Shown: positions 2,626 to 40,572 of the stretch, piece after piece
Numbering within the stretch: position 1 is the stretch's first letter
Layout of the letters: each line of letters opens with the position of its first letter
DNA from: Phapecoctavirus DIJ07P2
Sequence record: OZ035771.1
Length of the DNA stretch: 64,000 nucleotides
Strand: one strand, 5' to 3'
Translations under genes and position numbers: made by a program
Notes under the pieces: generated by a model
The model's database searches: none
What the model was told of the DNA's origin: nothing
What the model saw: the letters and a program-made list of their open reading frames with translations, nothing else

Positions 2626-2631
2626 TGGAGT

Positions 2632-2656
2632 AGAGGGGGATTCCCCCTCTTCTTCC
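2632..2656 (+). terminator. rho-independent terminator
   Basis: agagggggattccccctct hairpin plus T-rich tract directly after stop 2623-2625. Confidence 0.6.
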
Positions 2657-2686
2657 AATAGAATGGTCTAATGATAGGAGAGATAA

Positions 2687-4711
2687 ATGAATTTAACAAG
2701 ACCTAATAGTGCGATAGCCGATCTGGTAGAAGCTACTTATCGAAAACGTCGCAGCTTTGAGGCAGGTTTTACATTACGTAATTCCCGTGAAGTTTTGCTG
2801 TTAGCAGCAGAAGGGAATTATTACCAATGGAAAGGAACTTTTCCTAAAGTAGTTCCAGCAAACTCTACGCCAGCCACCACAGGTGGTATTTCTTCCCTTG
2901 CATGGCAAAGTGTTGGGACCGCTGATGATATAGCAATTATCAATGCCAAGTTTACGGCAATGCAGCAACAGATTGATGATCTGTCGGAAACAATACCTGA
3001 AGCTGGTAAATCGGCTTATCAGATCGCACTTGATAATGGTTTTGTTGGAACAGAAGCACAATGGCTTGCTTCTTTGAAAGGGGATACTGGTGCTCAACTT
3101 AATATTAAAGGATCATTAGCAAGCACTAGTGAACTACCATCTACAGGTAACGTAGCAGGTGATGGTTATATTGTAGGAGATGTAATCTACGCGTGGGATG
3201 GGGCTGTTTGGAAACTTATTTCTTCTCTTGGACCAGAAGGGAAATCAGCTTACGAGGTATGGTTGGCAGAGGGTAATACAGGATCTGTTTATGACTTTCT
3301 TGCCTCTATAAAAGGTGATAAAGGAGACGTTGGTCCTACAGGTCCACAGGGTGCACCTGGTGTCAACGCTAATGGTTTTGATTACCGTGGAGATTTGCCT
3401 TCTACAAGTAACTTACCACAACCTAACTCTGAAAACGTAAGCCAAGCTTATTCTATTAATGGTAATCTTTATGTCTCTAATGGGACAGCTTGGGTCAACA
3501 TGGGTAATATTGTTGGTCCTCAAGGTCCACAAGGTGAGGCAGGTAAAGACGGTCTAGATGGAACAGATGGAGACGAAGGGAAATCTGCATATCGAAGTTG
3601 GCTGGACGCTGGTAATGAAGGGACAGAAGTAGATTTTATTGCCTCGCTTAAAGGTCCAAAAGGAGACAAGGGAGAGCAAGGAGAACGAGGACCACAAGGC
3701 GAATTAGGTCCACAAGGACCAGTGGGTGCAACAGGATCAGGTTTAGAGATTATCGGGGTTCTGAACAGCGAAGCTGAACTTCCTCCGACTGGAGAAGTAG
3801 GTGATGCATATAAAATTAATAATGATTTGTATGTTTGGGTTCAAGATGCTACAGAATGGATGAATGTTGGCAGTCTTGGAGGAACATCAATTACAGCCAA
3901 AGGTCATGTTCCGAACAGCGAGGCTCTCCCTGTTTATAATAACTATGGTGATGCCTACTTAACTGAAGACACTAGTAATCTTTACATCTATACCTACGAT
4001 CAAGACACCAATTCCGCATCTTTTGTTGACATGGGAAGTATTAAAGGTGACAAAGGTGAAAAAGGGGATAAAGGAGATAAGGGTGATCCTGGAACAAACG
4101 GAACCAACGGTACTGATGGGACCAACGGTAAGGACGGCGCACAGTGGTTTGTAGCAACAACTAATCCAGTCGCAGGAGATGGTGTTATCAATGATTACGC
4201 CTTCAATACTACCACTGGGGCAGTGTTTAAGAAAACGGACTCTTCTACGTGGACACTTATAGGAACTCTTCCTAGTATACCAGAAGCTCCTCAAGACGGG
4301 TTGACTTATGGTCGCTCTGATGGAGACTGGATAGAAATATCGGGGTCAGATCCTACGGAAGCTATAACACCAACTAGAGTTACAGCAGGTTTCATGGAAC
4401 TTGAAACAACTACTGCCAACTCTGGAGCATCTTGGACTCCTTCTGGAACTTCCAATATGTATGTTGTTACAGTAACTGACGCTTTGACAGTTGGAGCATG
4501 GCCTGGTGTTACGAGTTCTACAAAACCTAAAGCATTTTCAGCAATGATTTATTTGATTCAAGATACAACGGGACACACGGTTACACTAGATGCGTCTTAT
4601 GGAGCACTGAATGATACAGAAATAGCAACTACTGCTAACGCAGTAACAATTTTGCAATTAACGTATCCTGGTGTGGGTGATATCGTGGACATGGTTGTTG
4701 TAACACGATAG
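2687..4711 (+). CDS. tail fibre protein with collagen-like Gly-X-Y tracts and internal repeats
   Basis: ATG 2687 with SD taggagag; Gly-X-Y runs (KGDKGDVGPTGPQGAPG; KGPKGDKGEQGERGPQGELGPQGPVGATG; KGDKGEKGDKGDKGDPGTNGTNGTDGTNGKDG); 3-4 repeats of GKSAY..W...G..G...F.AS.KG. Confidence 0.6.
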   Translation: MNLTRPNSAIADLVEATYRKRRSFEAGFTLRNSREVLLLAAEGNYYQWKGTFPKVVPANSTPATTGGISSLAWQSVGTADDIAIINAKFTAMQQQIDDLSETIPEAGKSAYQIALDNGFVGTEAQWLASLKGDTGAQLNIKGSLASTSELPSTGNVAGDGYIVGDVIYAWDGAVWKLISSLGPEGKSAYEVWLAEGNTGSVYDFLASIKGDKGDVGPTGPQGAPGVNANGFDYRGDLPSTSNLPQPNSENVSQAYSINGNLYVSNGTAWVNMGNIVGPQGPQGEAGKDGLDGTDGDEGKSAYRSWLDAGNEGTEVDFIASLKGPKGDKGEQGERGPQGELGPQGPVGATGSGLEIIGVLNSEAELPPTGEVGDAYKINNDLYVWVQDATEWMNVGSLGGTSITAKGHVPNSEALPVYNNYGDAYLTEDTSNLYIYTYDQDTNSASFVDMGSIKGDKGEKGDKGDKGDPGTNGTNGTDGTNGKDGAQWFVATTNPVAGDGVINDYAFNTTTGAVFKKTDSSTWTLIGTLPSIPEAPQDGLTYGRSDGDWIEISGSDPTEAITPTRVTAGFMELETTTANSGASWTPSGTSNMYVVTVTDALTVGAWPGVTSSTKPKAFSAMIYLIQDTTGHTVTLDASYGALNDTEIATTANAVTILQLTYPGVGDIVDMVVVTR

Positions 4712-4715
4712 TAGA

Positions 4716-4740
4716 AGCCCCGAAAGGGGCTTTCTTTTTA
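4716..4740 (+). terminator. rho-independent terminator
   Basis: agccccgaaaggggct hairpin followed by ttcttttta. Confidence 0.6.
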
Positions 4741-4752
4741 TGGAGGGTTTAA

Positions 4753-7425
4753 ATGTTTCCAATTCCAATATTTACTATTATGACCAGCACTGGTGTCGTT
4801 CCTCTGCCAGCGGGTATTGTTAAAAAAGTAATCACTTTAGATTACCCAGACAATGCTGGTAATTCTAACAGCAGTTTAGCAATTTTGCTTAACGATGGTA
4901 GATTGTTTACTCAAGGTGCAAACCTTTTTGGTGAGATTGCAGATGGAACTCGTAGTGCACGATGCAACAATTTCTACTTAGCTTCTACTGTAGTAGCAGA
5001 TGTGTTTACCGCAGATCGTTGTTTTGTTATTAAAACTAACAGTGGGGGATGGCAATATTCAGGACTGACAGCAGGGTTAGTAGGATCTATAGCAGCAGGT
5101 GGTACGGATGCATGTGTAACTACTTGGACCAGCTTTCCATCTGTAATAACAGGGACTATCTCTTTAGCCAATCTTAAAGAGGTTAAGGGAGGATATAACA
5201 ACACTCTCTGGTTAATGAATAGTGGTGTTCTTTATGGATCGGGTCAAAACACAGTAGGCAGTTTAGGTGCAAGCACTACTAACGAAGTTTCTACTCCTCG
5301 TCAGATAACAAGCGCAGCAGTTGCTTTTGATGCAGGTTACAACCAATGCTCTTATGTCAACAATGTGGGAACCTTGCGTGTTTGTGGAGCTAGTAAAGGT
5401 TTAGCAGGTAATAATAACACAACAAAAGCTTTTGTAAATGCTACGATATCCACTACTGAAACAGTGTATGTCAAAGATTACATCAATACCGTTTCCCAGA
5501 CAATAGTTGTAGGAGATACCTCCGGTGGAACTGGTACAACAAACTACCTTTATGTTAGATCTAATACAGAAACAACCTACACTAAGCTGGATACCTTTGC
5601 AGCAGGTTTCTCAACATGGAAGTTTCCACCGAGCCGTCACTCTTTTTTCGTTGGGATTAATAATTCCTTGTGGGCTATCGGTAAGAACTATACGGCAAAC
5701 TTAGGTCTGGGGTATGATTCTGCGAGCGGAGATCCACTCCAAGTGGGAAAACCAGTTAAACCTGAAGGAGTGGGTTCCTGGGATATAAACAAGCTCACAA
5801 GCGTTCATACGCTGAATATGGATGTTACTAACCAATTAGGTTATCAAGGAACATTTTTCGTTTATAATGGAAGTATGTATTATTCCGGTATTTGGAAAGA
5901 TGGGAAAGCGTCATATCTGTTCAATAGCGGTCTAAACTATAATAAATTCACACCAATAGCAAGCTCCGTGATTACGGGTGATGTGCTGGCAACTAGCTTA
6001 ACTACAGATTCTTTAGGAATTTGTATTGTAGGTGGAACTAAACAGTTGACACATTCTGTTAGCCCAGAAGGAGGTAAACTTTTCAATATTAAATACACTT
6101 CTTCTGCCCCTGCAAACATGACAATATCATCTACTGGCTTAATGACTTTCCAAGCAGAAGGTGGTTTTGATGCAGGTATGACAGCCTTAAACGCTGAAGG
6201 AACAACTCTATCAGATATCTCTGGAGGATATGCTTCAACATTGAGCGTTTACACCCCTAGCTTATCTGCGATGGATGTAGGAACAACACAAACAATGGTA
6301 GCAGAAATAACGCCAACAGGAGCAGCAAGCTTACCTGGTATGGTTGTTGAGTATACAACTACAGATCCTAGTGTTGCTACAGTAGATCCTACAACTGGCG
6401 TAATAACTGGAGTTGGTGATGGTGGTTGTAGAATTGGTTGCACAGCTACGTATCAAGGTGTTGTTACCGCTTCTGATAGTTCTTATTTAACGGTGAACGC
6501 TGTTGCGGGAAAGGAGTTAGCTCCATCTCCGAGTAGTAGTTTAACGGTTCTAAACGGATATTTCAACCACTCGGCAGATGGGGCGATTACGTTCCCAACT
6601 TTATCGGGTACTGTTACACCAGCTAACTTTGTAGTTAAGGTGGATGACGTTGTAGTTCCTTCAAGTAAAGTAATATTTAGAAATAAAGCTTTCTCTACAG
6701 TGGATAGTTATCCAGCAGGAGAATATAGACTGGCTATTGAATTTGCAAGTGCTTCTGTAGTTAATAATGTTGAGGTATCTATGGAAGCAAATCCAGATCT
6801 TTTAGAATTGTGGGGCGGCAACAGGATTGGTTATTCTACAAGCCCAGCCTCACAGTTCTTAAAAGGTTGTGCTAACTTAAGACGAATAACCTCTGATTGT
6901 TTTAGTAACACATCTTACACCGGAACGTCTATAAGTGGTATTTTCTCTGGCTGCACAAGTTTGACAGCTATCCCTGAAGGATTATTCAGCGATACTTTAT
7001 TTCCTTCGATGACAACAATGTCAAGCACGTTTGAAGGTTGTACGTCTTTAACATCTATTCCTTCTGATTTATTTAAAAATTTATCAAAAGTTACAAGATA
7101 CTCTTACACCTTTAAAAATTGCACCTCTCTTGCAGAAGTTCCAGCCGGAATGTTTGACAATATTCCAACGAAAGTAACCTCTTTAACAGCTACGTTCCAA
7201 GGTTGTTTAGCACTTACAGATTTTAATAAAATCTTTAATGACAACCCAGGGTTAACGGTTTGTGGTCAACGTGGAGCATTGTCTTCTTTCTTTAGTGGAT
7301 GCACAAATCTTACAGGAACAGGAGTAACATTAACAAGCACATTAGGTGGAGCAGCTAATAGTTACCTATTCAGGTATTGCACAAAACTTTCTGATTATAA
7401 CAACATTCCTTCGGGTTATAAATAA
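4753..7425 (+). CDS. tail fibre/receptor-binding protein with Ig-like segment and C-terminal BspA-type leucine-rich repeats
   Basis: ATG 4753, SD ggaggg; C-terminal repeats FSGCTSLTAIPEGLF, FEGCTSLTSIPSDLF, FKNCTSLAEVPAGMF, FQGCLALTDF; Ig-like stretch VTVDPTTGVITGVGDGG. Confidence 0.55.
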   Translation: MFPIPIFTIMTSTGVVPLPAGIVKKVITLDYPDNAGNSNSSLAILLNDGRLFTQGANLFGEIADGTRSARCNNFYLASTVVADVFTADRCFVIKTNSGGWQYSGLTAGLVGSIAAGGTDACVTTWTSFPSVITGTISLANLKEVKGGYNNTLWLMNSGVLYGSGQNTVGSLGASTTNEVSTPRQITSAAVAFDAGYNQCSYVNNVGTLRVCGASKGLAGNNNTTKAFVNATISTTETVYVKDYINTVSQTIVVGDTSGGTGTTNYLYVRSNTETTYTKLDTFAAGFSTWKFPPSRHSFFVGINNSLWAIGKNYTANLGLGYDSASGDPLQVGKPVKPEGVGSWDINKLTSVHTLNMDVTNQLGYQGTFFVYNGSMYYSGIWKDGKASYLFNSGLNYNKFTPIASSVITGDVLATSLTTDSLGICIVGGTKQLTHSVSPEGGKLFNIKYTSSAPANMTISSTGLMTFQAEGGFDAGMTALNAEGTTLSDISGGYASTLSVYTPSLSAMDVGTTQTMVAEITPTGAASLPGMVVEYTTTDPSVATVDPTTGVITGVGDGGCRIGCTATYQGVVTASDSSYLTVNAVAGKELAPSPSSSLTVLNGYFNHSADGAITFPTLSGTVTPANFVVKVDDVVVPSSKVIFRNKAFSTVDSYPAGEYRLAIEFASASVVNNVEVSMEANPDLLELWGGNRIGYSTSPASQFLKGCANLRRITSDCFSNTSYTGTSISGIFSGCTSLTAIPEGLFSDTLFPSMTTMSSTFEGCTSLTSIPSDLFKNLSKVTRYSYTFKNCTSLAEVPAGMFDNIPTKVTSLTATFQGCLALTDFNKIFNDNPGLTVCGQRGALSSFFSGCTNLTGTGVTLTSTLGGAANSYLFRYCTKLSDYNNIPSGYK

Positions 7426-29796: not shown

Positions 29797-30445
29797 TTAC
29801 AATTTCTCCTCTTTTAAGTTTCTCTAGTAAGTCGTTAGGGTTCTTAATATGACAGAAGTTAAATCCTAAGTCAACACATTTTCCATCATATTCTTCACTA
29901 TCGCCTACGTGCAATACTTCGTGCCCTAACAGAGGGATCGGAGAATATGTGAGCGTGCGAGCAAAGAATCGCGGATCTGGTTTACAAAGTAAAGCTTCAT
30001 CCGAGAAATGGGTGAACTCAAAACAATTCCAACTATCAAACTTACAAGCACGACGCAGGATATCCCCTGATATAAAGTTGGTATTGCTCTTAATACTCAA
30101 ATCATAACGTCCCGAAAGATACAGCAAGTACATCGGCAGATCCACGGCTACGTGTGGTGGAAACTTAAGGAACCACTGTTCACACTCGAAACGAAGCTTT
30201 GCAGACTTCCAAGGTGTTATCCCAAGTTCAGAACCAAGTCTTTCCCAGGCGTATGCTGCACACTCGGCTTTGCCTTGAAGTGCTGCATTATCCAGTTCCT
30301 TTTTGATCTTCTTATAAGCTGCTCTTGCTTCCACTTCCGTAATATCTCCATATTTTGCGATAGTCCAGGCTCGCATGTCTGCGTAATTGGAGTTTGCTGT
30401 GATCAGTGTGTTCCATACATCAAAAGAGATATGTTTAATAGTCAT
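29789..30445 (-). CDS. HAD-superfamily hydrolase (dehalogenase-like subfamily)
   Basis: motif I ISFDVWNTLI, motif III LCKPDP, motif IV HVGDSEEYD. Confidence 0.55.
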   Translation of the reverse strand: MTIKHISFDVWNTLITANSNYADMRAWTIAKYGDITEVEARAAYKKIKKELDNAALQGKAECAAYAWERLGSELGITPWKSAKLRFECEQWFLKFPPHVAVDLPMYLLYLSGRYDLSIKSNTNFISGDILRRACKFDSWNCFEFTHFSDEALLCKPDPRFFARTLTYSPIPLLGHEVLHVGDSEEYDGKCVDLGFNFCHIKNPNDLLEKLKRGEIVNA

Positions 30446-30446
30446 A

Positions 30447-31052
30447 TTAAGCCCACCATGCGTCTAAGTTAAGATTACTGTCCACTACCACTTGTTCTAT
30501 GTGGTAGCCTTTTATCTGTATCCCACTGTTCAAGAGCATATCATACGCTTCATTGAAACGCAACTTATCTTCTGCGGAATATAAGCGAGCATTATAAAAT
30601 CGGTAATCAATTTCTTCAGCATTAGAAGAAATACGGAAGAAGTTTGTTTCTACTTCGGGATCACTTGCTGAAGTCTTAATGTGAACTTCTCCATAATTTT
30701 CTTTACTTAGATCCATGAAAAGAACACAGGCAACATGTTTAAACATTCGTTCCAGTTTGTAACGAACAACATTGAAACCTGCATTCTCAAGTTTTTCTAC
30801 ACACTGCAACATTAAAGTAGTGTCGAGATCGCTTTGATACTTTGTTAACATACGATCACGTTGAGACTTTGTATCCCGATGTAAATCAATTGTTGTGCAT
30901 TTGGCACCAATAATCTTAGCTGCTTTCATCAACTCTTCAGAACTAACGTTAGATAAAGTAAGATGAAAATGGGCTTTCCACACTTTTTTAGCAGGGACAC
31001 CAAAAGATTTATCCCCATTATTCGGCATGTTGACTACTACACTATGTTGCAT
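30447..31052 (-). CDS. hypothetical protein (201 aa)
   Basis: track ORF; ATG 31052 with SD gaggag; possible HxT-type motif AHFHLTL, too weak to assign. Confidence 0.45.
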   Translation of the reverse strand: MQHSVVVNMPNNGDKSFGVPAKKVWKAHFHLTLSNVSSEELMKAAKIIGAKCTTIDLHRDTKSQRDRMLTKYQSDLDTTLMLQCVEKLENAGFNVVRYKLERMFKHVACVLFMDLSKENYGEVHIKTSASDPEVETNFFRISSNAEEIDYRFYNARLYSAEDKLRFNEAYDMLLNSGIQIKGYHIEQVVVDSNLNLDAWWA

Positions 31053-31067
31053 TACTTATCTCCTCAC

Positions 31068-31259
31068 TTAAAATGGAAGTCTTTGAAGTTCATCTCCTCC
31101 GATATCAAGTAATTTAGCAACATCTCGATCAGAAAGCAACTCTTTTCTTTGTAAAATATCCACAAGGGTTGCAAGAATCTCCTTAACGTCCCGATCACTG
31201 TTCTTCAACAGTTCTCCTGCCGTCCCTACTCTATCTCCTACAGCAAAATATGTAACCAT
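31068..31259 (-). CDS. hypothetical protein (63 aa)
   Basis: internal ATG 31259 with SD taggaggt preferred over track start that overlaps nrdG. Confidence 0.4.
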   Translation of the reverse strand: MVTYFAVGDRVGTAGELLKNSDRDVKEILATLVDILQRKELLSDRDVAKLLDIGGDELQRLPF

Positions 31260-31272
31260 GAAACCTCCTAAG

Positions 31273-31743
31273 TTAATCTGATTGCCAACCACTTGCCGTT
31301 TTGGTCCATAATCTTTGATTATCTGACCCTCTGAAAGGTTTTGTAGTTGGATTGTTTATTTCATACTTTCCGTCTACAATAATGTCAACAAGATTTTTAA
31401 TATATAAAGGCACTTCCTCAAAAGTATATCCTGTATACACCATTATATCTTTGCTTGACCCATAAACGTCTCTAACCTTTTCTATAAGGCTTTTAACATT
31501 GTAAATATTCTGCGGATCTAATGGTTCTCCTCCTAAAATTGTTAAACCTTTTACAAACGGTCTTGACAAATCTTTTAAAACTTGCTCTACATTTTCGTGA
31601 GTAAACGGTTTCCCGTAAGAATAAGACCAGGCTTTTTGGTTAAAACAGCCACGACAACCGTGGCTACAACCACTAACCCAGAGGGAGCACCTAACTCCCT
31701 CGCCATTAATAAGATCTACAGGTTCATATCCTGCAAAATTCAA
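31273..31743 (-). CDS. nrdG: anaerobic ribonucleotide reductase activating protein (radical SAM)
   Basis: CxxxCxxC cluster CSHGCRGC near N-terminus; about 156 aa; immediately downstream of nrdD; TTG start in TTGA overlap with nrdD stop. Confidence 0.8.
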   Translation of the reverse strand: MNFAGYEPVDLINGEGVRCSLWVSGCSHGCRGCFNQKAWSYSYGKPFTHENVEQVLKDLSRPFVKGLTILGGEPLDPQNIYNVKSLIEKVRDVYGSSKDIMVYTGYTFEEVPLYIKNLVDIIVDGKYEINNPTTKPFRGSDNQRLWTKTASGWQSD

Positions 31744-32711
31744 AGATGTTTCTCCCTTTGCAAAACTTCCTGCATTTTACCTTTGTTGTAAGGGCGTGAA
31801 TTAGGGGCAGAAAGATACCCTGACACACGTCTAACTACAGAAATAGTTTCTTCTTCATGGTTGCCACAATCAGGACACTCAAACCCTTTAGCCGTTGCCT
31901 TAAATTCTCCATGAAAACCACACTTAAAGCATTGATCCACGGGCTGATTAATACCAAAATAGTGAATATGTTCATAAGCGTAGTCTACTAAAGTCTCCAA
32001 AGCTTCTAAGTTATTCTTTAAGTTTGGTGTTTCGACATAACTTATGTTACCACCATTGCTAATCTGTGCAAAACCTGCTTCATAATCCCATTTTTCAAAA
32101 GGATTTGTTACCAACCATACAGGTTGGTGAAAAGAGTTGGTAAGATAATCTCTTTCTACCAAACCTGGGTATTTTTCATTTAAAGCTGTTGCAAACTTAT
32201 AGCACAAGGATTCTGCTGGAGTTCCATAAAGACTAAACGCCAAATTAGATCGTTCTTTAAACACAGCACACACATCTTTCATATGTTGCAGAATGCTTTT
32301 ACCAAGTTCCTTTTTATCTTTTTCTTCTGGATAAAGGATTTCCAAAGCTTCGGCAAGACCTACATAACCAATACTAATAGAAGCATAACCACCTTCAAAC
32401 AAAACACCAATTTCATCATTGGCATTTAAACGCGCTAAAGCCCCTTCCATGAAAAGAATAGGGTTTTCAGATGCTTTGGTATGCCTAATACGGTTTACAC
32501 GTAACATGTGAGCATCGTAGGCTATCTCCATATGTTTATTAAGGAGGTCGGTGAAAGATTCTCCTTTACTTCTCGCTTCCGCAGCAATCAGAGGTAAATT
32601 GATAGAAACTACTCCAAGGTTGAATCGTCCATCATATTTTTCTCCTTGCTCTGTTGCATAGTATGACAAGAAACTTCTACACATTATGTTCAAAGTGGCT
32701 CGCAAGGCCAC
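31740..32711 (-). CDS. nrdD: anaerobic ribonucleotide reductase, C-terminal part (glycyl-radical domain)
   Basis: C-terminal Cys4 (CFKCG...CPDCG) and glycyl-radical motif RVSGYL; separated from N-terminal part by HNH endonuclease insertion. Confidence 0.75.
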   Translation of the reverse strand: MALRATLNIMCRSFLSYYATEQGEKYDGRFNLGVVSINLPLIAAEARSKGESFTDLLNKHMEIAYDAHMLRVNRIRHTKASENPILFMEGALARLNANDEIGVLFEGGYASISIGYVGLAEALEILYPEEKDKKELGKSILQHMKDVCAVFKERSNLAFSLYGTPAESLCYKFATALNEKYPGLVERDYLTNSFHQPVWLVTNPFEKWDYEAGFAQISNGGNISYVETPNLKNNLEALETLVDYAYEHIHYFGINQPVDQCFKCGFHGEFKATAKGFECPDCGNHEEETISVVRRVSGYLSAPNSRPYNKGKMQEVLQREKHL

Positions 32712-33442
32712 TCCCGCACCATTACGTGCTGCTGCATGTCACCATGCAGATCAGACTATATCTTCATGCTTAAAGCATGTCTACCATTTGGGGTGTCATA
32801 GGCTTACACCCTACGCTGCTACATTCATCACAGCTAGTCGTTAGGCATTTCGTAACAGAACTCATAATCATAATTATTTGGTGCTCCTTGCTTTAAGATT
32901 GCAGATATTCTTTTTCTGTCCAACCCTAAAGCGTCAGCACAACATCTCAGACTTTTAAAGTAAAAAACTTCACCAGTAGCCTTATGAGTAGCTTTTACAC
33001 TGTGACACCTTGTGTAGAAAGCATAACAGTTATTATCGTAACCCTCTTGCGTGTTGTCTGGACAAGATCCCCACTCAAGATTGTATACACTGTTGTCTTT
33101 CCTATTGTCACCTTTATGCTTCACATAAGGTAAATTGTCTGGATTGGGTAAAAACGCTTCAGCTACAAGTCTGTGCACCCGAAAGCAAACAGTTTTCTTG
33201 TTTTTACGTATTCTGACAAGTTGGTATCCTGTGTTTATTTCTTCCCACGAGCGAAGGATTCTTTCATCCTTATACCTGGTACAATAAACATTTCCAAGCT
33301 CGTCAATTTCATACCCTTCAAAATCACGAATTTGTTTTCTCATATCAGTACCCCCTTCTTCTGTGTTGGGAGTTCTGTTACGTTTAGCACGGGATTGTCT
33401 CTGTTGAGAGTTCCCCCGTTTAGGCAGATTTTACATGAGCAG
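32712..33442 (-). mobile_element. intervening sequence in nrdD carrying an HNH homing endonuclease gene (group I intron or free-standing insertion)
   Basis: about 730 nt between the two NrdD reading frames; roughly 100-120 nt of non-coding flank on each side of the HNH ORF. Confidence 0.5.
32834..33343 (-). CDS. HNH homing endonuclease
   Basis: FRVHRLVAEAFLPNP...KHKGDNRKDNSVYNLEW pattern typical of phage HNH endonucleases. Confidence 0.65.
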   Translation of the reverse strand: MRKQIRDFEGYEIDELGNVYCTRYKDERILRSWEEINTGYQLVRIRKNKKTVCFRVHRLVAEAFLPNPDNLPYVKHKGDNRKDNSVYNLEWGSCPDNTQEGYDNNCYAFYTRCHSVKATHKATGEVFYFKSLRCCADALGLDRKRISAILKQGAPNNYDYEFCYEMPND

Positions 33443-34324
33443 TTATAGTTTACCCATACTCGTAACGGTACCATCTGCTGATCCCGTAACTTCTTTGTTC
33501 AAAGGGACAGAAATAAAATCTGGATAAATACGATCAGCACAACATGCCAAAGCTTGTTGCTTAAGGTCGTAGTTAGGATCACTAGGTTTCATGTTAACAC
33601 CTTCTTGTAAAAAGAAAATAACTTTAGGGAATACAGGCGTTACATGATCTTTGCCTAGACCGTTACTATGCACTTTAAGATAGTTAGCTGTGATCATTCT
33701 GCCAAAAACAGAGGTATCCAGACCCATACTGATTGTAATAAAAGGAGATTGTCCATTAACACTCATTAAAGTGTTAACCTGATACAAAAGAGTTTGCATA
33801 GCGTCATATACATCTTGTTCGGTCATTTCTAGGGCTTCTTTCCTTGCATAACAACCGTAGCGACGTTTGGTTATCTCCATGTTTTTAAGGAAACTGGCTT
33901 CAACATAAGGACTAAGACCTTTATCAATGTGCGCACACGTCTGACCTCCATACTGACTGGAGGCAACAGCTTGAATGATTTGAGTTAGCACTGTAGTAGC
34001 TACTCCAATAGATTTTGGTTTTTCTATCTGTGCAGCACCGATCTTAAAACCATTCTCTAACATATCTTGATAATTAACAAGACAACAGTTTGTAAGAGGA
34101 GAGAGTAGGTAATCCAAGTCGTGAATATGTCCAAAACCTTCTGTATGCCATTCTGACAAGTTTTTTGGCAGTATCTGTGTCATTGCCATATGTTTGCTTA
34201 AAATCCCCGCCAAGAGATCTCTATGCGTGTTAACGAGGTGGGAAGGTTTGTTTGCATTCTCTCTAGTGTATGTTTCTGAAGTGCGATCTAAAAAAGAAAA
34301 AACATCTTGGTACAAATCTTTCAT
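33443..34324 (-). CDS. nrdD: anaerobic ribonucleotide reductase, N-terminal part
   Basis: 293 aa frame immediately upstream of insertion; combined length with C-terminal part about 616 aa, as expected for NrdD; assignment rests on context and length. Confidence 0.55.
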   Translation of the reverse strand: MKDLYQDVFSFLDRTSETYTRENANKPSHLVNTHRDLLAGILSKHMAMTQILPKNLSEWHTEGFGHIHDLDYLLSPLTNCCLVNYQDMLENGFKIGAAQIEKPKSIGVATTVLTQIIQAVASSQYGGQTCAHIDKGLSPYVEASFLKNMEITKRRYGCYARKEALEMTEQDVYDAMQTLLYQVNTLMSVNGQSPFITISMGLDTSVFGRMITANYLKVHSNGLGKDHVTPVFPKVIFFLQEGVNMKPSDPNYDLKQQALACCADRIYPDFISVPLNKEVTGSADGTVTSMGKL

Positions 34325-34390
34325 TATTAATCCTTATTTTGTGAGTAGAACTATTATTCTACCTCTTCCAACCGAAAAAAGCTTTGAGGG

Positions 34391-34417
34391 AAATCAAAAA
34401 AGGCGCAAAGTGCGCCT
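34391..34417 (-). terminator. rho-independent terminator (possibly bidirectional)
   Basis: aggcgcaaagtgcgcct hairpin flanked by A-run upstream and T-rich tract downstream on plus strand. Confidence 0.5.
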
Positions 34418-34427
34418 TTAAGTTTTA

Positions 34428-35774
34428 TCATTTGGAGAGGAATTGTCTTCCCATGATCTTACCGTTCTTCACAGCAGTCCCATCGTGTCCATTGTAATCC
34501 CAGGTTCCATCGATATTACGCAAGAAGCTATCACGAACAGTATAGGCTTTACCGTTCTCTACTTTACTTTCTTCCACAATGATTGCCATAACAAGCTTAT
34601 TTTCAATTTCGGTAGTAACCGATTCTTTGATACCCTCTGTAACTTCACGATCATATTGGATATAAACTCGCTCCTCGGTTACTTGCACGTCTACCACATT
34701 TTTAAATGTGTAGGTCTGTTGCGTAGTGTAGAGGACACGAACGACACTCTTCTTACCTACTGGCGGCTTCTGACGACGCTTGCGGTAACGTGGAGACGGG
34801 TTAAGTTTAATATAACCTACAATATCTGATCCATCTCCAGAGTGGCTCCAATACAACGTCTCTGCCAACAAACCTTTTCCTTGGTCCCCATTTCGAAAAA
34901 GAACATTAACAGGACCATCACAAGGGCGTCTACCTCCGATGTGGGCTTGGTATTTTGCTGTTCTTGGGAGAACAAAATATTCTTCAATCTGCCATTCACT
35001 ATCGTATTTCTCCCATTCAAAGTGGTTGGCTTTACATACTTCTAAAACACCATTTTTGTAACGGACTTGAACAAAGTCTTCACAAGGTTGAATACCTGTA
35101 TTAGGAATATAGGTAGGCTCTGTGTCTTCTGGTTCAAAAGTCTCTTTTTGTTGTTCCACATCTTCCACTTTTCTTACATGCTTAGTATAAAACATATCTT
35201 TAAACTCCTGTGCTTCAACCTCAACTGCAAATTCATGTTCTCTGACAGCCGGAGGCACAAGGCTTCCACACTCAAGATGTAGAGCATCCAGACCTGCCAT
35301 TTTATCGTAAAAGATAACTTTTCGATACTTCTTACCGTCTTCTGGAATAGCAGGGTCTACTCGTTTAAGACGGGAAGCATCGCTTTTAGTCCAAAAACTC
35401 TTCCCTGTTGTATTATTGAAAGTAGTAATCATTTCTTCAATTTCTTCTTCAGAAAGGTTACTAGTGTCTGTGTAAACATCTTCAATTTTTAGCGTTTTAG
35501 TTTTCTTAAAAATTAAATCTAGCATTGCATCTCCTGTAAAACGTAGTTCATTATCTCCTACTGTCGGCTCTCCAGTAAATTCATCGGTCCCAACTGTGTG
35601 ACAGATGTATGGAAAATTTGTGCAACCGTGTAAAAGAGCATATTGTCCTGTAAGTTTAGGATCTGTCTCTTTAGTCCAACCATATGCAATCTCAATAGCT
35701 TTGCAAAGCCTATCAAACAAGCCACGATTGTTTGCCGCTGTTACCAAATCCTGTTTATGTGCATATACATTCAT
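34428..35774 (-). CDS. hypothetical protein (448 aa)
   Basis: track ORF; no motif recognised. Confidence 0.5.
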   Translation of the reverse strand: MNVYAHKQDLVTAANNRGLFDRLCKAIEIAYGWTKETDPKLTGQYALLHGCTNFPYICHTVGTDEFTGEPTVGDNELRFTGDAMLDLIFKKTKTLKIEDVYTDTSNLSEEEIEEMITTFNNTTGKSFWTKSDASRLKRVDPAIPEDGKKYRKVIFYDKMAGLDALHLECGSLVPPAVREHEFAVEVEAQEFKDMFYTKHVRKVEDVEQQKETFEPEDTEPTYIPNTGIQPCEDFVQVRYKNGVLEVCKANHFEWEKYDSEWQIEEYFVLPRTAKYQAHIGGRRPCDGPVNVLFRNGDQGKGLLAETLYWSHSGDGSDIVGYIKLNPSPRYRKRRQKPPVGKKSVVRVLYTTQQTYTFKNVVDVQVTEERVYIQYDREVTEGIKESVTTEIENKLVMAIIVEESKVENGKAYTVRDSFLRNIDGTWDYNGHDGTAVKNGKIMGRQFLSK

Positions 35775-36325
35775 AATAATCCTCCTCGTTTTATTGCAAT
35801 AGATGCCCTAGGCTCTGCGATACCAGTGGCGTATAAATATGGATGACCTTGTGGAGAAGTTCTCATCCCAAACGAACCTAATTCTAACCCATACATATCT
35901 TCCACGTCAAGACCAATATCTGTCTCTATGATTTGAGTTTGAACTTTGTAATACGTCCAAAAGAAATAGCGCATAGTTTCGGCATACTCTTTGATGGACG
36001 CTCCTGGATAAAACTCAATAATTTCCAACTTCAAGAAAATGTTAAAATGAACATCATCTAATTCTTCCTCTGTTCGGTAGCAAGGTGTTAGAGCCATATA
36101 AGGATGATCTGTTGAAAATTCAAAACCATCTTTCTCCATCTGGAGGAAAGACTGCTCTGCACTGGCTACGTAGAACTTACCATTAGGATGCCCCAAGGGG
36201 CGATCCTCTTTACCTTCTGGTAATGTATATGCAAGGATATCTGCATCTACAAGATAAGGGACTTCCAACATCTCCGCAAACCGTCCATAGTAATCAATAG
36301 CTTGAGCAATAACAGCTACGTTCAT
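35771..36325 (-). CDS. hypothetical protein (184 aa), weak class-II aminoacyl-tRNA synthetase-like motifs
   Basis: ALTPCYRTEE and GLELGSFGMR stretches; not sufficient for assignment. Confidence 0.4.
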   Translation of the reverse strand: MNVAVIAQAIDYYGRFAEMLEVPYLVDADILAYTLPEGKEDRPLGHPNGKFYVASAEQSFLQMEKDGFEFSTDHPYMALTPCYRTEEELDDVHFNIFLKLEIIEFYPGASIKEYAETMRYFFWTYYKVQTQIIETDIGLDVEDMYGLELGSFGMRTSPQGHPYLYATGIAEPRASIAIKRGGLL

Positions 36326-36573
36326 GATCTTCCTCCTGTGCGGAAAGCGCGTTTAGTAATGTTGGACATAATGATTAAATCTTGTAAAGTCATATCTGGG
36401 AACTGTTGTTCTAAAACTCCCTCGACAGCCCCTATAATATCTGACAATTCAACAAGTTGCATTATTTTGCAATCCTGCTCAACAGCATCAAAAAGTTCTT
36501 CTACTTCCTCTTTAATCTTTTCTATGCTGCCATAAGGTTGTTTCTTAATGTCTGTTATGTGATACCCTGCCAT
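36322..36573 (-). CDS. MazG-like all-alpha NTP pyrophosphohydrolase
   Basis: 83 aa; EEVEE-x15-ELSD pattern (E-x2-E ... E-x2-D). Confidence 0.45.
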   Translation of the reverse strand: MAGYHITDIKKQPYGSIEKIKEEVEELFDAVEQDCKIMQLVELSDIIGAVEGVLEQQFPDMTLQDLIIMSNITKRAFRTGGRS

Positions 36574-39204
36574 TTAACGATCCTCTCTGATTTGATTAAT
36601 CTTACGAGCAAGGGCAGCTATAAGCTTATCTTCTTCAGATACAGGAGCCGTGCTCTTACCTAAACGATGCATGTCTAAAATCTCTTGAACAGTTCGGTTC
36701 CATTGCAGACATTTAATACAACGTGTATGTGCAACATACAGAAGATTTCGTTCTGATTCTTCAAGACCTACCCACTCACCCTTCTTATCGTAATTAGAAG
36801 GGAAGTCATTTGCAACAATAACCTGATCCCATTCCAAACCTTTTGATTTGTGGGCTGTAGTTAAAGTAACTTTAGCCGTTGGAGAGTTACGGTGCATACG
36901 TAAAGTGTATGCAATATTATTAGCTTTACCAGAAACAACAATGTTTAAAAGTCGTTTTGCATCAGGATCTGATTCTGCACACTCTACAAATTCTTCCCAA
37001 GAAGTGTAAGGTAGAACTGTCTCATGCTTAACTTTGTCCAAATCACCTCTACGTAAAGCATTAACACTATCAACCATAGAAATGAAATCTTTGGTATCTA
37101 CGTTAATAATAATCTCTTCTCCGTTAGCGATTCGATCCATTGCCTCCATAAGCAAGGTTAAATTCTTGCGAAAGATGATAGTGTAAGGTTTTGTATAGTC
37201 TACAACATCTGATTTGTAGCTACCTACTACAGTATCAAAGCCTTTACCAACCAAAGGATGACGCAAAGGTTCTTTATCGCTTAAAATCATATTGGCAATG
37301 TTTGCCACTTTGGGGCCAAAACGGAAGCAAGCAGTTAATGGAAGCTCTGCCCCATACTTAGCTGTTTCAATCATCATATTAGAGCTACCTCTAAATTGAT
37401 AAATGCAGTTGTGGCTAAGAATTTCATTGCCAAAGAAGTTAGCAGTATCCTCTACTTCAATATCATAATAGATACCCTCACTATCTACAATGTCCACAAT
37501 CTCTTCTGCCGTTACAGTATCACCATCTTTTACCAACACAGACATGCCTTTAAACAAACCCGCTGCCGGAATTAAGTTATATTTGGCAGTGTCTACAGAG
37601 GACATGCATTCTTTTAAAGATGCAAACGGAACTATTTCAAGGATCTTTTGTGCAAAACTCAATGCTTCACAATAAGAATTGAAATATTTACGTACACGGT
37701 AACGACCTTCCAATTTAGCAACACTTACGCTTACACCTGCTTTAATGAGTGAAGCATAGATCGGCATTTCACTTTCTGTCCACTCAAAACTGACTTGTGT
37801 TCCTTTACAACCTTGTGCTCGCAAAGTCACTGTTAACATTTTTCTTTCATCTACTGCACAATTGATGCTGTGCCAATGTGGATAAGCAAAATGATAGTCT
37901 TTATCCTCTAAAAGTTTAAAACCATTCTGTCCGAATTGTTCAAAGATGTTATTGATCCTTTCTTGATTAATGCCGCGTGAACTTGCTTCAAATACACAAG
38001 TAGGAATGCCATATTGTAAACTGTATGCCATTTCTTTTTCCATAGCAGCTTCGCGATTTTCAACAATGTCCAACACCCATAATTTCTGTGCTTTTTCAGA
38101 ACGTGTACGTTGCCCCAGTTTAGAAAAACCTTCTTTATCATCGAATTTGTTAGTGATCCCTACTCGGAAACCTAAATCTTTCCTCCACATTAGGTATACC
38201 ACCATCTGGTCATCTTTCAGAACATAAGATGAAGCCCAAATACGATGGTTATGTGTCATATCTAAAGTTTTACCTGTAGCAGTAATAATATTCCTACCTT
38301 TTGTACGTGTAGATAAAGTCTTATTTGTTACTTTTCTAAATGTAACTTTACCATTAGAATAAGACTCTACCTTATCACCGATTTGCAGGTCTTTCATTGT
38401 AACCTGACCATTCTCGGTGTTAAGTACCGTGTTTTCCGACACACATTGAAATTCATCACCCACAACAACAATACGTTTAGCCGATTTAGCATTACGAAGG
38501 ATAGACAGGAATGCAGGGTTAACATCCTGGAATTCATCTCCAAAAATAATATCGTATCCTAAATCTTCTTTGCTCAATTCAAAGAGTTTCACATAGGTGT
38601 CATGAGTCATAATGGTTTCTGATTTAGGATCAATACGCTCACGCCAAAGTTGCTTCGCATATTTAACAACTTCGTTAATAAGTTTTTGTTCGTTGATGTT
38701 TTTACGTTTTAGGTCTGACATGTGCACTTTAGGAAAATGTTTATGTCCGATATGTTCATCGTCAGAAAACTCATATTTAGCTAAAGTTTGTTTTACCATT
38801 AACCCGATCATTGCACGAGTCAGTAGCACTTTACCATTCTTATCGATCAAGTTCTGAATCTTAAATTTCTTGGCAATCTCACTACCAGTTCCAGCTACGT
38901 TAACATATTGACCTTCTGGACGAGATAATTTGTGTCGAAGGTTTTGTGGAAGACGCTGGTAACAGATAGAATGTAGCGTTCGGCACATAACATTGGGCGG
39001 CATTTTACGTCGAGCTTCCTCTGCCATACTTTTGTTAAATGCCAAATATAGAATACTATCATTTGTGCCATTAGCCAACATATACAGTGTTGACGTTTTA
39101 CCTGATCCAGATTTAGCTTGAATTGTAACGAAACGATTTTCTTTATACCCGCTTTCAATAGCGTATTGTTCATCAGTAGGTGTAAAACTCAATTGTGTAG
39201 ACAC
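36574..39204 (-). CDS. SF1 (UvrD/PcrA-like) DNA helicase containing an in-frame intein
   Basis: Walker A AKSGSGKTS; motif II FGDEFQDV; motif III VVVGDEFQ / CIYQFRGS split by a 346-aa insertion. Confidence 0.7.
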   Translation of the reverse strand: MSTQLSFTPTDEQYAIESGYKENRFVTIQAKSGSGKTSTLYMLANGTNDSILYLAFNKSMAEEARRKMPPNVMCRTLHSICYQRLPQNLRHKLSRPEGQYVNVAGTGSEIAKKFKIQNLIDKNGKVLLTRAMIGLMVKQTLAKYEFSDDEHIGHKHFPKVHMSDLKRKNINEQKLINEVVKYAKQLWRERIDPKSETIMTHDTYVKLFELSKEDLGYDIIFGDEFQDVNPAFLSILRNAKSAKRIVVVGDEFQCVSENTVLNTENGQVTMKDLQIGDKVESYSNGKVTFRKVTNKTLSTRTKGRNIITATGKTLDMTHNHRIWASSYVLKDDQMVVYLMWRKDLGFRVGITNKFDDKEGFSKLGQRTRSEKAQKLWVLDIVENREAAMEKEMAYSLQYGIPTCVFEASSRGINQERINNIFEQFGQNGFKLLEDKDYHFAYPHWHSINCAVDERKMLTVTLRAQGCKGTQVSFEWTESEMPIYASLIKAGVSVSVAKLEGRYRVRKYFNSYCEALSFAQKILEIVPFASLKECMSSVDTAKYNLIPAAGLFKGMSVLVKDGDTVTAEEIVDIVDSEGIYYDIEVEDTANFFGNEILSHNCIYQFRGSSNMMIETAKYGAELPLTACFRFGPKVANIANMILSDKEPLRHPLVGKGFDTVVGSYKSDVVDYTKPYTIIFRKNLTLLMEAMDRIANGEEIIINVDTKDFISMVDSVNALRRGDLDKVKHETVLPYTSWEEFVECAESDPDAKRLLNIVVSGKANNIAYTLRMHRNSPTAKVTLTTAHKSKGLEWDQVIVANDFPSNYDKKGEWVGLEESERNLLYVAHTRCIKCLQWNRTVQEILDMHRLGKSTAPVSEEDKLIAALARKINQIREDR
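37408..38445 (-). mobile_element. intein (346 aa) within helicase motif III
   Basis: begins with Cys (CVSENTVL), block B-like DMTHNHR, ends ILSHN followed by +1 Cys; removal restores GDEFQ-CIYQFRG. Confidence 0.65.
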
Positions 39205-39218
39205 GTATTTCTCCTCTC

Positions 39219-39734
39219 TTAATAAAAACTCTTGACAATCCTCATCATTTCCTTAGCTCTGCTGGCGTAAGGTTCTTTTAGATTAGGTGGCAAATGTGCA
39301 TTAATGTACCCCATTTGTTTTTCCCATGTCCACTTATCTTTAAATCTTGGCATGGTGTCTCCTGCTAAACTGTTTTCTTTTCGTGTTTGAATAATCCAAT
39401 TACATGGAAAATGCACACCACCTTTACGGAAGGGAATATAATGTCCCAATGTGAATGCCTTATTGTTCTTTAAACGTCCAGCTAAATTAAGATTAACAAT
39501 AAGACTACGAAACACGTAGTATTGATAAAGATTGTCAACAGTATATACAGAGTAGTATGCTCTAAGTGCATTATCTCTACTAAGATTACCAACATCCAAA
39601 CTGCACCAGTTTAAATTACTTGGATCGTAGTTGTGATTATCAATCCATTCTTCTCTTTCCTCAAATTCTGCATTAACAGCAGACTGCCCTGCTGTAGATA
39701 CAAAAAGAGAATTTGCATCAAAGAACATACTCAC
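39219..39734 (-). CDS. hypothetical protein (171 aa)
   Basis: track ORF. Confidence 0.45.
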   Translation of the reverse strand: MSMFFDANSLFVSTAGQSAVNAEFEEREEWIDNHNYDPSNLNWCSLDVGNLSRDNALRAYYSVYTVDNLYQYYVFRSLIVNLNLAGRLKNNKAFTLGHYIPFRKGGVHFPCNWIIQTRKENSLAGDTMPRFKDKWTWEKQMGYINAHLPPNLKEPYASRAKEMMRIVKSFY

Positions 39735-39742
39735 TCCCCCCT

Positions 39743-40096
39743 TTAGTTTACATCGTTTAGAGCATTACCAATCTTTAAGATAATAACATCGTTAAGAGCT
39801 TCTTCTCCATTAAGGCCAGAGAAAGCAGGAGTAACGAAAGTTACCATGTAATAATGGTCTTCTTGTAGGATTGCGATAACGCCGTCTAGTTTAACATCTC
39901 CTGTGAAACGAAAAACTTTCAACTTTTGTTCTAAAGGAAGATCTCCTTCGACATTTAAAACCATATCTCCGACACCAAACTTTTCTGCCCCGATGTAGAT
40001 GTAAGCTTGGTCCTCTTTTTTATGGTAATACAATGTTGCTTGTTTGTCTTGTAGTGTTGTGATACCAAACACATCTACATCAATAATATTTTTCAA
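39743..40096 (-). CDS. hypothetical protein (117 aa)
   Basis: track ORF; TTG start with SD aagaggag. Confidence 0.45.
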   Translation of the reverse strand: MKNIIDVDVFGITTLQDKQATLYYHKKEDQAYIYIGAEKFGVGDMVLNVEGDLPLEQKLKVFRFTGDVKLDGVIAILQEDHYYMVTFVTPAFSGLNGEEALNDVIILKIGNALNDVN

Positions 40097-40209
40097 AAAA
40101 TTCTCCTCTTATTTTGTGTTGACCTTATTTCGCATTAACCTGTGGGATACAGAGTTGCGAGATCTGTTTAGAACCTTACCAATCCCTGCATGACTATACC
40201 CTTCACTAT

Positions 40210-40572
40210 TTAACCTAAACACATACGTGCGATCAGACCCTGGATGAGTTTATCTGCTTCTTCACGATCATAGTCGGTATCTTCTATACCACCATCTTCG
40301 TCACGATAAACTTTACCTTCCAGGTACCCAGCATCGATCAAACCAATAATCAAATCGAACTGCCAACAAGAATTACCGAAAGGACGTTTTCCACTGAAAC
40401 TGTCTTCTTCTTCCCAAAGTGTAGAGAGCAGTCGTCTGAAATATTCACGCACAGTAACAGTGCCAAGATCATCGTCTTCAAAAACAACATCTAAAGCATC
40501 TGGTTCAGCTTTATCTACAACAGGCACATAACGTTGACCATTAATAACAACATCTACAATCGTTTCTCTCAT
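40210..40572 (-). CDS. hypothetical protein (120 aa), acidic
   Basis: track ORF. Confidence 0.45.
   Translation of the reverse strand: MRETIVDVVINGQRYVPVVDKAEPDALDVVFEDDDLGTVTVREYFRRLLSTLWEEEDSFSGKRPFGNSCWQFDLIIGLIDAGYLEGKVYRDEDGGIEDTDYDREEADKLIQGLIARMCLG

Follow-up and report, generated by a model that had tools for sequence, protein, structure and literature searches.

The DNA analysed here, called the window throughout, is a stretch of 64,000 nucleotides (nt) from Phapecoctavirus DIJ07P2 (sequence record OZ035771.1), and its minus strand was found to contain, at 36574-39204, a helicase gene that is interrupted in frame by a predicted intein. This open reading frame (ORF) was the sole ORF in that region. 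Its exteins matched the Pfam families UvrD-helicase (49.5 bits), UvrD_C (41.4 bits) and AAA_19 (38.1 bits), all above the cut-offs, and among the PHROGs the helicase matched phrog_1967, 'DNA helicase', with an E-value of 7e-157. The signature of a UvrD/Rep-type helicase of superfamily 1 (SF1) was complete in the host protein, which contained the Walker A motif AKSGSGKT and the motif II GDEFQD followed by the presence of motif III, GDEFQ/CIYQFRG, where the slash marks the insertion point. When the insert was removed conceptually, the resulting protein of 530 amino acids (aa) was aligned across the junction without a gap, both to motif III of human FBH1 (VGDPHQQIYTFRGA), its best solved relative (E 5e-34), and to that of UvrD (VVGDPDQSIYKFRGA), the UvrD of Deinococcus and E. 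coli containing GDPDQSIYKFRGA. These matches and alignments bear out an earlier reading of the DNA, made from its letters alone and referred to as the sequence-only reading, in which the host was taken as an SF1 helicase, the site as its motif III, and excision was said to restore GDEFQ-CIYQFRG. In the helicase, the pentapeptide GDEFQ was found at two places, in motif II (GDEFQD; 38530-38544, aa 221-225) and again in motif III (GDEFQ/C; 38446-38460, aa 249-253).

The insertion point lay between Gln253 and the +1 Cys, so that motif III was split in the arrangement GDEFQ/C...SHN/CIYQFRG. The extent of the insert (37408-38445, 346 aa) and the residues quoted for it in the sequence-only reading (VVVGDEFQ, CVSENTVL, THNH, ILSHN and the Cys that follows) were found to be exact to the base, the minus strand being the only addition. 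In profile searches, the insert matched TIGR01443 intein_Cterm with 23.4 bits (cut-off 15.6) and the Pfam family Hint with 29.7 bits, equal to the cut-off of 29.7, followed by Intein_splicing with 33.6 bits, just under the cut-off of 35.8. All the residues of a class 1 intein were present, namely Cys1, T64-x-x-H67 in block B, Asp328 in block F, His345-Asn346 and the +1 Cys. H67 corresponded in the alignment to the His of the homologues' (S/T)PNH, and the THNH element, which had been described as resembling block B, was placed as T64-H67 at splicing block B and not as a nuclease motif. A search of the PDB sequences with the intein by phmmer gave marginal intein matches only (E > 0.2), and a word-indexed protein search returned 2 matches with the intein alone and 11 with an alignment as the query.

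An AlphaFold2 model of the intein, built on 11 homologues, had a pLDDT score (predicted local distance difference test) of 89.4 and a predicted template modelling (pTM) score of 0.86. The Hint part of the model was found to resemble the solved mini-inteins gp41-1, Mtu RecA and Npu DnaB, with target template modelling (TM) scores of 0.78-0.84, and the model also matched the endonuclease-bearing inteins VMA, PI-SceI and PI-PfuI, with E-values down to 4e-8. With the splicing residues all in place, the Hint fold in the model and intein-free alleles in existence, the 346-aa insert is judged from sequence and model to be a class 1 intein that interrupts motif III of a UvrD-type SF1 helicase, as had been proposed. 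Protein splicing is to be expected from the viability of isolates in which a conserved helicase motif is interrupted by the intein. The 876-aa precursor would be translated and the Hint domain would begin with an N-S acyl shift at Cys1, followed by trans-thioesterification onto the +1 Cys, cyclisation of Asn346 and an S-N shift, and the products would be the free 346-aa intein and the 530-aa helicase, its motif III (GDEFQ-CIYQFRG) intact. The features of the gene are collected in Table 1.

Table 1. Features of the interrupted helicase gene. Positions are those of the window unless given as helicase gene nt; P, Phapecoctavirus; J, Justusliebigvirus.
Feature	Position	Strand	Remarks
Shine-Dalgarno-like GAGGAG	39211..39216	minus	6 nt upstream of the helicase GTG start; read from the sequence
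Helicase precursor ORF	36574..39204	minus	876 aa, GTG start, SF1 UvrD/Rep-type, intein-interrupted; Pfam and PHROG matches
N-extein, aa 1-253	38446..39204	minus	Walker A AKSGSGKT, motif II GDEFQD, first half of motif III VVVGDEFQ; Phapecoctavirus-type until 1-4 nt from the intein
Predicted class 1 intein, 346 aa, Cys1 to His345-Asn346	37408..38445	minus	precursor aa 254-599; Pfam/NCBIfam matches, AlphaFold2 model
N-terminal part of Hint splicing domain, intein aa 1-77	38215..38445	minus	block A Cys1, block B T64-H-N-H67; TIGR01445 and Pfam Hint matches; all-beta in the model
Conserved core of inserted domain, intein aa 78-160	37966..38214	minus	beta-beta-alpha-beta-alpha; proposed divergent GIY-YIG-like nuclease
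Rest of inserted domain, intein aa 161-287	37585..37965	minus	helical linker and beta-beta-alpha-beta-alpha-beta subdomain; from models
C-terminal part of Hint splicing domain, intein aa 288-346	37408..37584	minus	block F YDIEVED, block G ILSHN; TIGR01443 above cut-off; model like mini-inteins
+1 Cys codon TGC, first C-extein residue	37405..37407	minus	Ser (AGT or AGC) in 4 of 4 intein-free alleles examined
Co-conversion tract, 273 nt of C-extein	37135..37407	minus	100% identical to phi92 and PaulScherrer, 64-72% to Phapecoctavirus alleles
C-extein remainder (helicase 2A/2B domains, UvrD_C) and stop codon	36574..37134	minus	Phapecoctavirus-type
P-type segment	helicase gene nt 1-756	minus	informative sites all P
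J-type segment (intein and 273 nt of C-extein)	helicase gene nt 759-2070	minus	79 consecutive informative sites donor-type
P-type segment	helicase gene nt 2073 to end	minus	informative sites P again

The helicase gene matched 124 phage records, and the intein was found in 37 of them; the site is polymorphic, with about 37 intein-bearing vs about 95 intein-free records. Intein-free alleles of the genus Phapecoctavirus, as found in 536P1 and vB_Ec-G1, contained exactly 1593 nt (530 aa), and those of the genus Justusliebigvirus, as found in J-01 and inny, contained 1737 nt (578 aa) and lacked exactly the same 1038 nt. The alignment with intein-free homologues, which had been named as a check in the sequence-only reading, thus placed the boundaries of the missing 1038 nt in the closest relatives exactly where they had been drawn, and the gene of these relatives was found without the segment that might have been an integral domain. 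The intein was present in 0 of about 75 Phapecoctavirus-type records of the phage collection. Among the Justusliebigvirus records, it was found in about 36, and the junction was uninterrupted in about 20. Occupied and empty Justusliebigvirus alleles were found to be 98-100% identical outside a stretch that reaches about 25 nt upstream and about 65 nt downstream from the site, and these short foreign flanks point to what may have been earlier invasions with shorter tracts.

In PaulScherrer (MZ501100, bas60_0082) and JohannJBalmer (BASEL), the gene product is labelled 'intein-containing UvrD / Rep family helicase precursor' and the intein is entered as a mature peptide, and vB_EcoM_ZYD carries a similar intein label; phi92 gp198 was found to hold the same element, and the phi92 record says only that the helicase has 'discontinuous domains'. 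The inteins of the BASEL phages were identified via comparative annotation (PMC8594841). Since the same intein is annotated in phi92-like phages, the intein call is correct and is not new. This annotation is poorly known, as it is still stated in a paper of 2024 that inteins had not been reported from coliphages (PMC11162368). What is new here is the copy in a host of another genus, a Phapecoctavirus backbone, with an unusually clear homing footprint.

Some further records were found to contain relatives of the element. Four records named 'Campylobacter phage' (MG065639, MG065645, MG065656 and MG065689; host C. jejuni) shared the coliphage-type helicase intein, which was 97% identical, and resembled phi92 in genome size; they might be Justusliebigvirus genomes that were mislabelled or arose as contaminants. 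The Klebsiella phage KP13-16 (OP617741) was found to contain, at 1706-5302, an orthologous helicase of 1198 aa with two apparent inteins, the first of which is of LAGLIDADG type and lies inside the Walker A loop (GTGK/...VTHN/TSTL), and the second of which is a motif III copy with 66% identity.

The window flanks were found to be 96-99% identical to the Phapecoctavirus genomes 536P1 and vB_Ec-G1, whereas the intein DNA was 99.6% identical to that of phi92, of the genus Justusliebigvirus (4 differences in 1038 nt), and the exteins of phi92 and the window shared only about 65-85% DNA identity. The mosaic was scored on the window gene with two P and two J alleles, which gave 405 consistently differing positions, and the segments so obtained are given in Table 1. 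Outside the intein and the tract, the helicase gene was 97-100% Phapecoctavirus-type. When 100-nt bins across 30000-40214 were compared with 536P1, an identity below 93% was found only in the tract, the median being 99%. The switch on the 5' side lay within about 3 nt of the insertion point and the tract on the 3' side contained 273 nt, so that the exchange was strongly one-sided. At the two switch points, the P- and J-type sequences share just 2-8 identical bases, and an assembly chimera is unlikely because so short a match would not let an assembler pass from one type to the other. This mosaic was not found in any record of the phage collection (closest match over 36950-38750, 94.3%), and the exact 876-aa protein was found in two independent sources, an NCBI genome of 144.8 kilobases (kb) and the Logan assembly of run ERR12949680. 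The +1 codon was TGC (Cys) in all intein-bearing alleles vs AGT or AGC (Ser) in the four empty ones. These comparisons show that the intein and the adjoining 273 nt of the C-extein were evidently copied, and recently, from a phi92-like Justusliebigvirus into a Phapecoctavirus backbone, that is, non-vertically. The Ser-to-Cys change at +1 arrived with the tract, by which the intein brought its own splice-junction nucleophile and 91 helicase codons were replaced.

Donor-type sequence adjoining a mobile element is classically the mark of homing, in which cleavage of the empty allele is followed by its repair from the occupied allele and flanking markers are co-converted. In a mixed infection, the intein-free allele would be cut at the insertion point or very close to it, and the N-extein end would invade the donor allele, with the intein-bearing allele as the repair template; synthesis would proceed through the intein and 273 nt beyond, followed by re-annealing (synthesis-dependent strand annealing). 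Asymmetric resection would be an alternative route to the same one-sided tract. The presumed intein-free target around the insertion point reads GTGGGTGATGARTTTCAG/AGTATTTATCAGTTCCGTGGAAGC. On the 3' side of the site (37380-37400, about 7-26 nt into the C-extein), the empty alleles of both genera contained CAGTTCCGTGGAAGCCA, whereas the occupied alleles contained CAATTTAGAGGTAGCTC; between these two, the codons for Q-F-R-G-S differ synonymously only, and the next codon is changed from Gln to Ser. It might be speculated that this stretch is a candidate recognition region of the endonuclease, with changes that protect the occupied alleles. Site-specific cleavage by the encoded enzyme is the presumed homing activity.

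Between the splicing blocks, the intein was found to carry about 210 further residues (intein aa 78-287), for which no family was recognised in Pfam, NCBIfam or PHROGs. An exhaustive search with the inserted segment returned 642 representative clusters at E <= 1e-3, 61 of them below 1e-30, and the homologues were found nearly all within long UvrD-type proteins, one being in a glycosyltransferase. Junctions were counted in representative homologues in which they were complete (N-terminal, n=120; C-terminal, n=100). The intein started with Cys in all 120, and the insertion was in motif III (GDxxQ/C) in 98, in motif II (DE/C) in 11 and just after motif II in 7; for some members of the family, motif II is thus the insertion site instead of motif III. 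At the C-terminal end, HN was found in 88 of the 100 homologues, followed by a +1 residue that was S, C or T in 98, with Ser in 79 and Cys in 17. A large family of helicase inteins thus shares a private domain, for which there is no database model.

In a set of 154 sequences with a pairwise identity of at most 50%, the residues Y84, R94, G96, R113, E117, W123 and E138 were each found to be conserved in at least 149. The ratio of non-synonymous to synonymous substitution rates (dN/dS), calculated against the copy of the Klebsiella phage KP2025, was 0.029 in the core (aa 78-160), vs 0.28 in the N-terminal Hint part and 0.23 in the rest of the insert. To judge from these values, the inserted domain is under strong purifying selection, with no decay. 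In the part formed by intein aa 161-287, R252 and K253 were conserved among close homologues, and weak matches to small alpha/beta sandwich folds were found; a role of this part in DNA binding is suggested.

The inserted domain of about 210 aa is taken as the putative homing endonuclease of the intein. The sequence-only reading had considered the insert large enough for such a domain, and had named as a check a search of intein databases for the splicing blocks and for LAGLIDADG/HNH motifs. The extra domain was indeed found and the intein and Hint models matched, whereas both of the nuclease types were left without a match. For LAGLIDADG, there was no match in Pfam or NCBIfam and no LAGLIDADG motif, and Foldseek gave a probability of 0.1-0.3 with a TM-score of about 0.2; this class was rejected on topology and on the invariant polar residues, which all lie in one subdomain. 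For HNH, no family was matched in Pfam, NCBIfam or PHROGs, the 'THNH' being the splicing block B.

In the models, the core contained a beta-beta-alpha-beta-alpha arrangement followed by helices and then by the second subdomain, beta-beta-alpha-beta-alpha-beta. Conserved residues were found at GIY-YIG-like places: strand 1 contained Tyr, strand 2 x-V/I-G, the first helix Arg together with a conserved residue four positions on, and the helix after strand 3 Glu. Y84, R113 and E138 match GIY-YIG enzymes in order and in structural element and were conserved in at least 151 of the 154 sequences. When 68 diverse members were scanned singly against Pfam, GIY-YIG was matched by 7 (best E 0.006), T5orf172 by 2 and Tox-URI2 by 1, which belong to one fold class; these families of the GIY-YIG clan were the only recurrent weak matches (10 of 68), and every other family was a singleton. 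Among the PHROGs, 'homing endonuclease' families were the top weak matches. A divergent GIY-YIG-like nuclease is the best hypothesis for the core (aa 78-160), and it stands at roughly even chances.

Several results weigh against this assignment and against the wider reading of an intein moved by its own nuclease. The Tyr of the YIG motif is replaced by R94 and the canonical His/Tyr by E117, so that Arg and Glu occupy catalytic positions of GIY-YIG enzymes; the Asn position of these enzymes is variable in the family. The copy of the window itself did not match PF01541, a profile of the domain core did not match any PDB sequence even at E-values up to 10, and Foldseek gave no match of the inserted domain in the PDB below E 1e-3. 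Alignment of the core profile with the I-TevI family by hhalign also gave no match, the reference being shallow (9 close relatives) and the power low. The mosaic is a gene conversion centred on the intein and is silent on who made the break, so that ordinary recombination in a mixed infection could yield the same pattern, and splicing and DNA cleavage by the intein or its phage copies are deduced from sequence. That the domain, here and in several hundred UvrD-helicase inteins, is an active homing endonuclease of strongly diverged GIY-YIG type, fused in frame within the intein, is accordingly put forward tentatively, at somewhat less than even chances. The reading as a whole, namely a class 1 helicase intein with a putative homing endonuclease domain that was copied from a phi92-like Justusliebigvirus, is held with high confidence. 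A survey of the GIY-YIG superfamily in 2006 stated that inteins had yielded no such domain (PMC1564403). A survey of actinophage inteins in 2025 described domains of LAGLIDADG, HNH, Vsr-like and endonuclease VII-like type, GIY-YIG being named only in passing within a list (bioRxiv 10.1101/2025.01.02.630785), and a survey of mycobacteriophage inteins covered neither this helicase site nor this domain (PMC5050341).

The intein might instead have come via ordinary homologous recombination in a co-infection with no endonuclease break, the domain being a non-nuclease or an inactive remnant with a DNA-binding or structural role. Phages of this subfamily are generally mosaic, the inserted domain is not significantly matched by any known nuclease model, and its nuclease role is a presumed one; even so, this account is considered improbable. 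Across 30000-40214, the sole donor-type patch adjoins the intein, with the 5' switch as close to the insertion point as stated above, and the Justusliebigvirus alleles differ only round the site, as repeated site-specific invasion predicts. An inactive remnant is also at odds with the dN/dS of the core and with the Tyr, Arg and Glu that were near-invariant over the 154 diverse sequences.

A free-standing donor endonuclease acting in trans, of the sort represented by T4 mobE and I-TevIII, might have made the break, which would leave the intein domain to serve another purpose. Such trans-homing is documented in T4 (PMC2790892), and the gene directly upstream of the helicase (39219-39734, minus strand) was found to be a homologue of phi92 gp200, for which the phi92 record gives a 'predicted HNH endonuclease-like fold'. 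This gene has no Pfam match, to HNH or otherwise, and is present also in intein-free phages; the co-conversion tract runs away from it, and the same domain travels with same-site helicase inteins in hundreds of unrelated genomes. Because it travels with these inteins, the inserted domain rather than the neighbouring gene would be the mobility function, and a break in trans is regarded as very unlikely. Between gp200 and the helicase, phi92 was found to contain an extra gene of 477 nt, gp199, which is not present in the window. It is extremely unlikely that the 346-aa segment is an unexcised integral or regulatory domain, or the mosaic an assembly chimera of two phages, for although splicing of the segment is a deduction and the genome was assembled from sequencing reads and judged at the assembly level, most related phages have a helicase of 530 aa or 578 aa that lacks the segment, motif III is interrupted by the segment, in which every splicing residue is found, and the identical protein occurs in two sources with at most about 8 shared bases at the switch points.

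A second selfish element had also been claimed for the window, at nrdD, and it was recovered in the present analysis. The nrdD gene (anaerobic ribonucleotide reductase; 31740-34324) was found to be split into two ORFs by an insert of 779 nt (32673-33451), which was present in 536P1 and nepoznato and not in vB_Ec-G1. On the minus strand, the insert contained an ORF (32834-33343) for an I-HmuI-like HNH endonuclease of 169 aa, with HNH_3 and I-HmuI_NUMOD-like matches just under the cut-offs. The stretch 32731-32766 of the window was 100% identical over 33-36 nt with the region of the td gene in many T4-like phages, which suggests that it may be a conserved core of a group I intron. A search of 31000-40000 with Rfam at the gathering threshold gave nothing, so that the nrdD insert was not confirmed as a group I intron in that way.

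The helicase locus is a clean natural case of an intein crossing phage genera, in which the two recombination boundaries are resolved to within 2-3 nt and empty sites of either kind can be compared. As intein-bearing and intein-free isolates exist in both genera, the system looks ready for measuring homing in coliphage crosses. The replacement of 91 codons of an essential helicase, with the change of Ser to Cys after the Gln of motif III, illustrates the remodelling of a host gene by a selfish element. If the domain is of GIY-YIG type, it would add a new class to the few intein endonucleases and would offer a compact new scaffold for a site-specific nuclease. If it is active, a class undocumented as an in-frame intein domain would be at hand, and the window would record both its crossing of genera and the rewriting of 273 nt of the helicase, including the splice-junction nucleophile.

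Among known systems, the helicase intein of the phi92-like phages (phi92 gp198, PaulScherrer and JohannJBalmer) was found to be the same in its 346 aa, its insertion point, its +1 Cys and the first 273 nt of the C-extein, with 96-99.6% DNA identity; the host gene differs, as that of the phi92-like phages encodes 924 aa vs 876 aa for the Phapecoctavirus orthologue, with exteins that diverge to the extent given above. Sixteen bacterial UvrD inteins were listed by Novikova et al. 2016 (PMC4760082). The inteins of bacterial UvrD/PcrA helicases are likewise of class 1 and in the ATPase core of an SF1 helicase, and the homologues found here share the GDxxQ/(S/C)IYxFRG site and the inserted domain, whereas their genes are chromosomal and contain mostly Ser at +1; this likeness concerns the homologues retrieved here.

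The class 1 LAGLIDADG inteins PI-SceI, VMA and RecA contain the same Hint fold and splicing residues, whereas they have one acidic residue per half and the present domain contains its invariant polar residues in one subdomain, with no LAGLIDADG motifs. With the GIY-YIG proteins I-TevI, the Seg proteins, UvrC and SLX1, the domain gave no significant sequence or profile match, and it differs from them in being in frame within an intein. The homing of T4 introns and seg genes shares with the present case an asymmetric donor-derived tract beside the mobile element and related co-infecting phages. It differs in that the vehicle here is an intein, the transfer took place between two genera, and the event is read from genomes and not from crosses.

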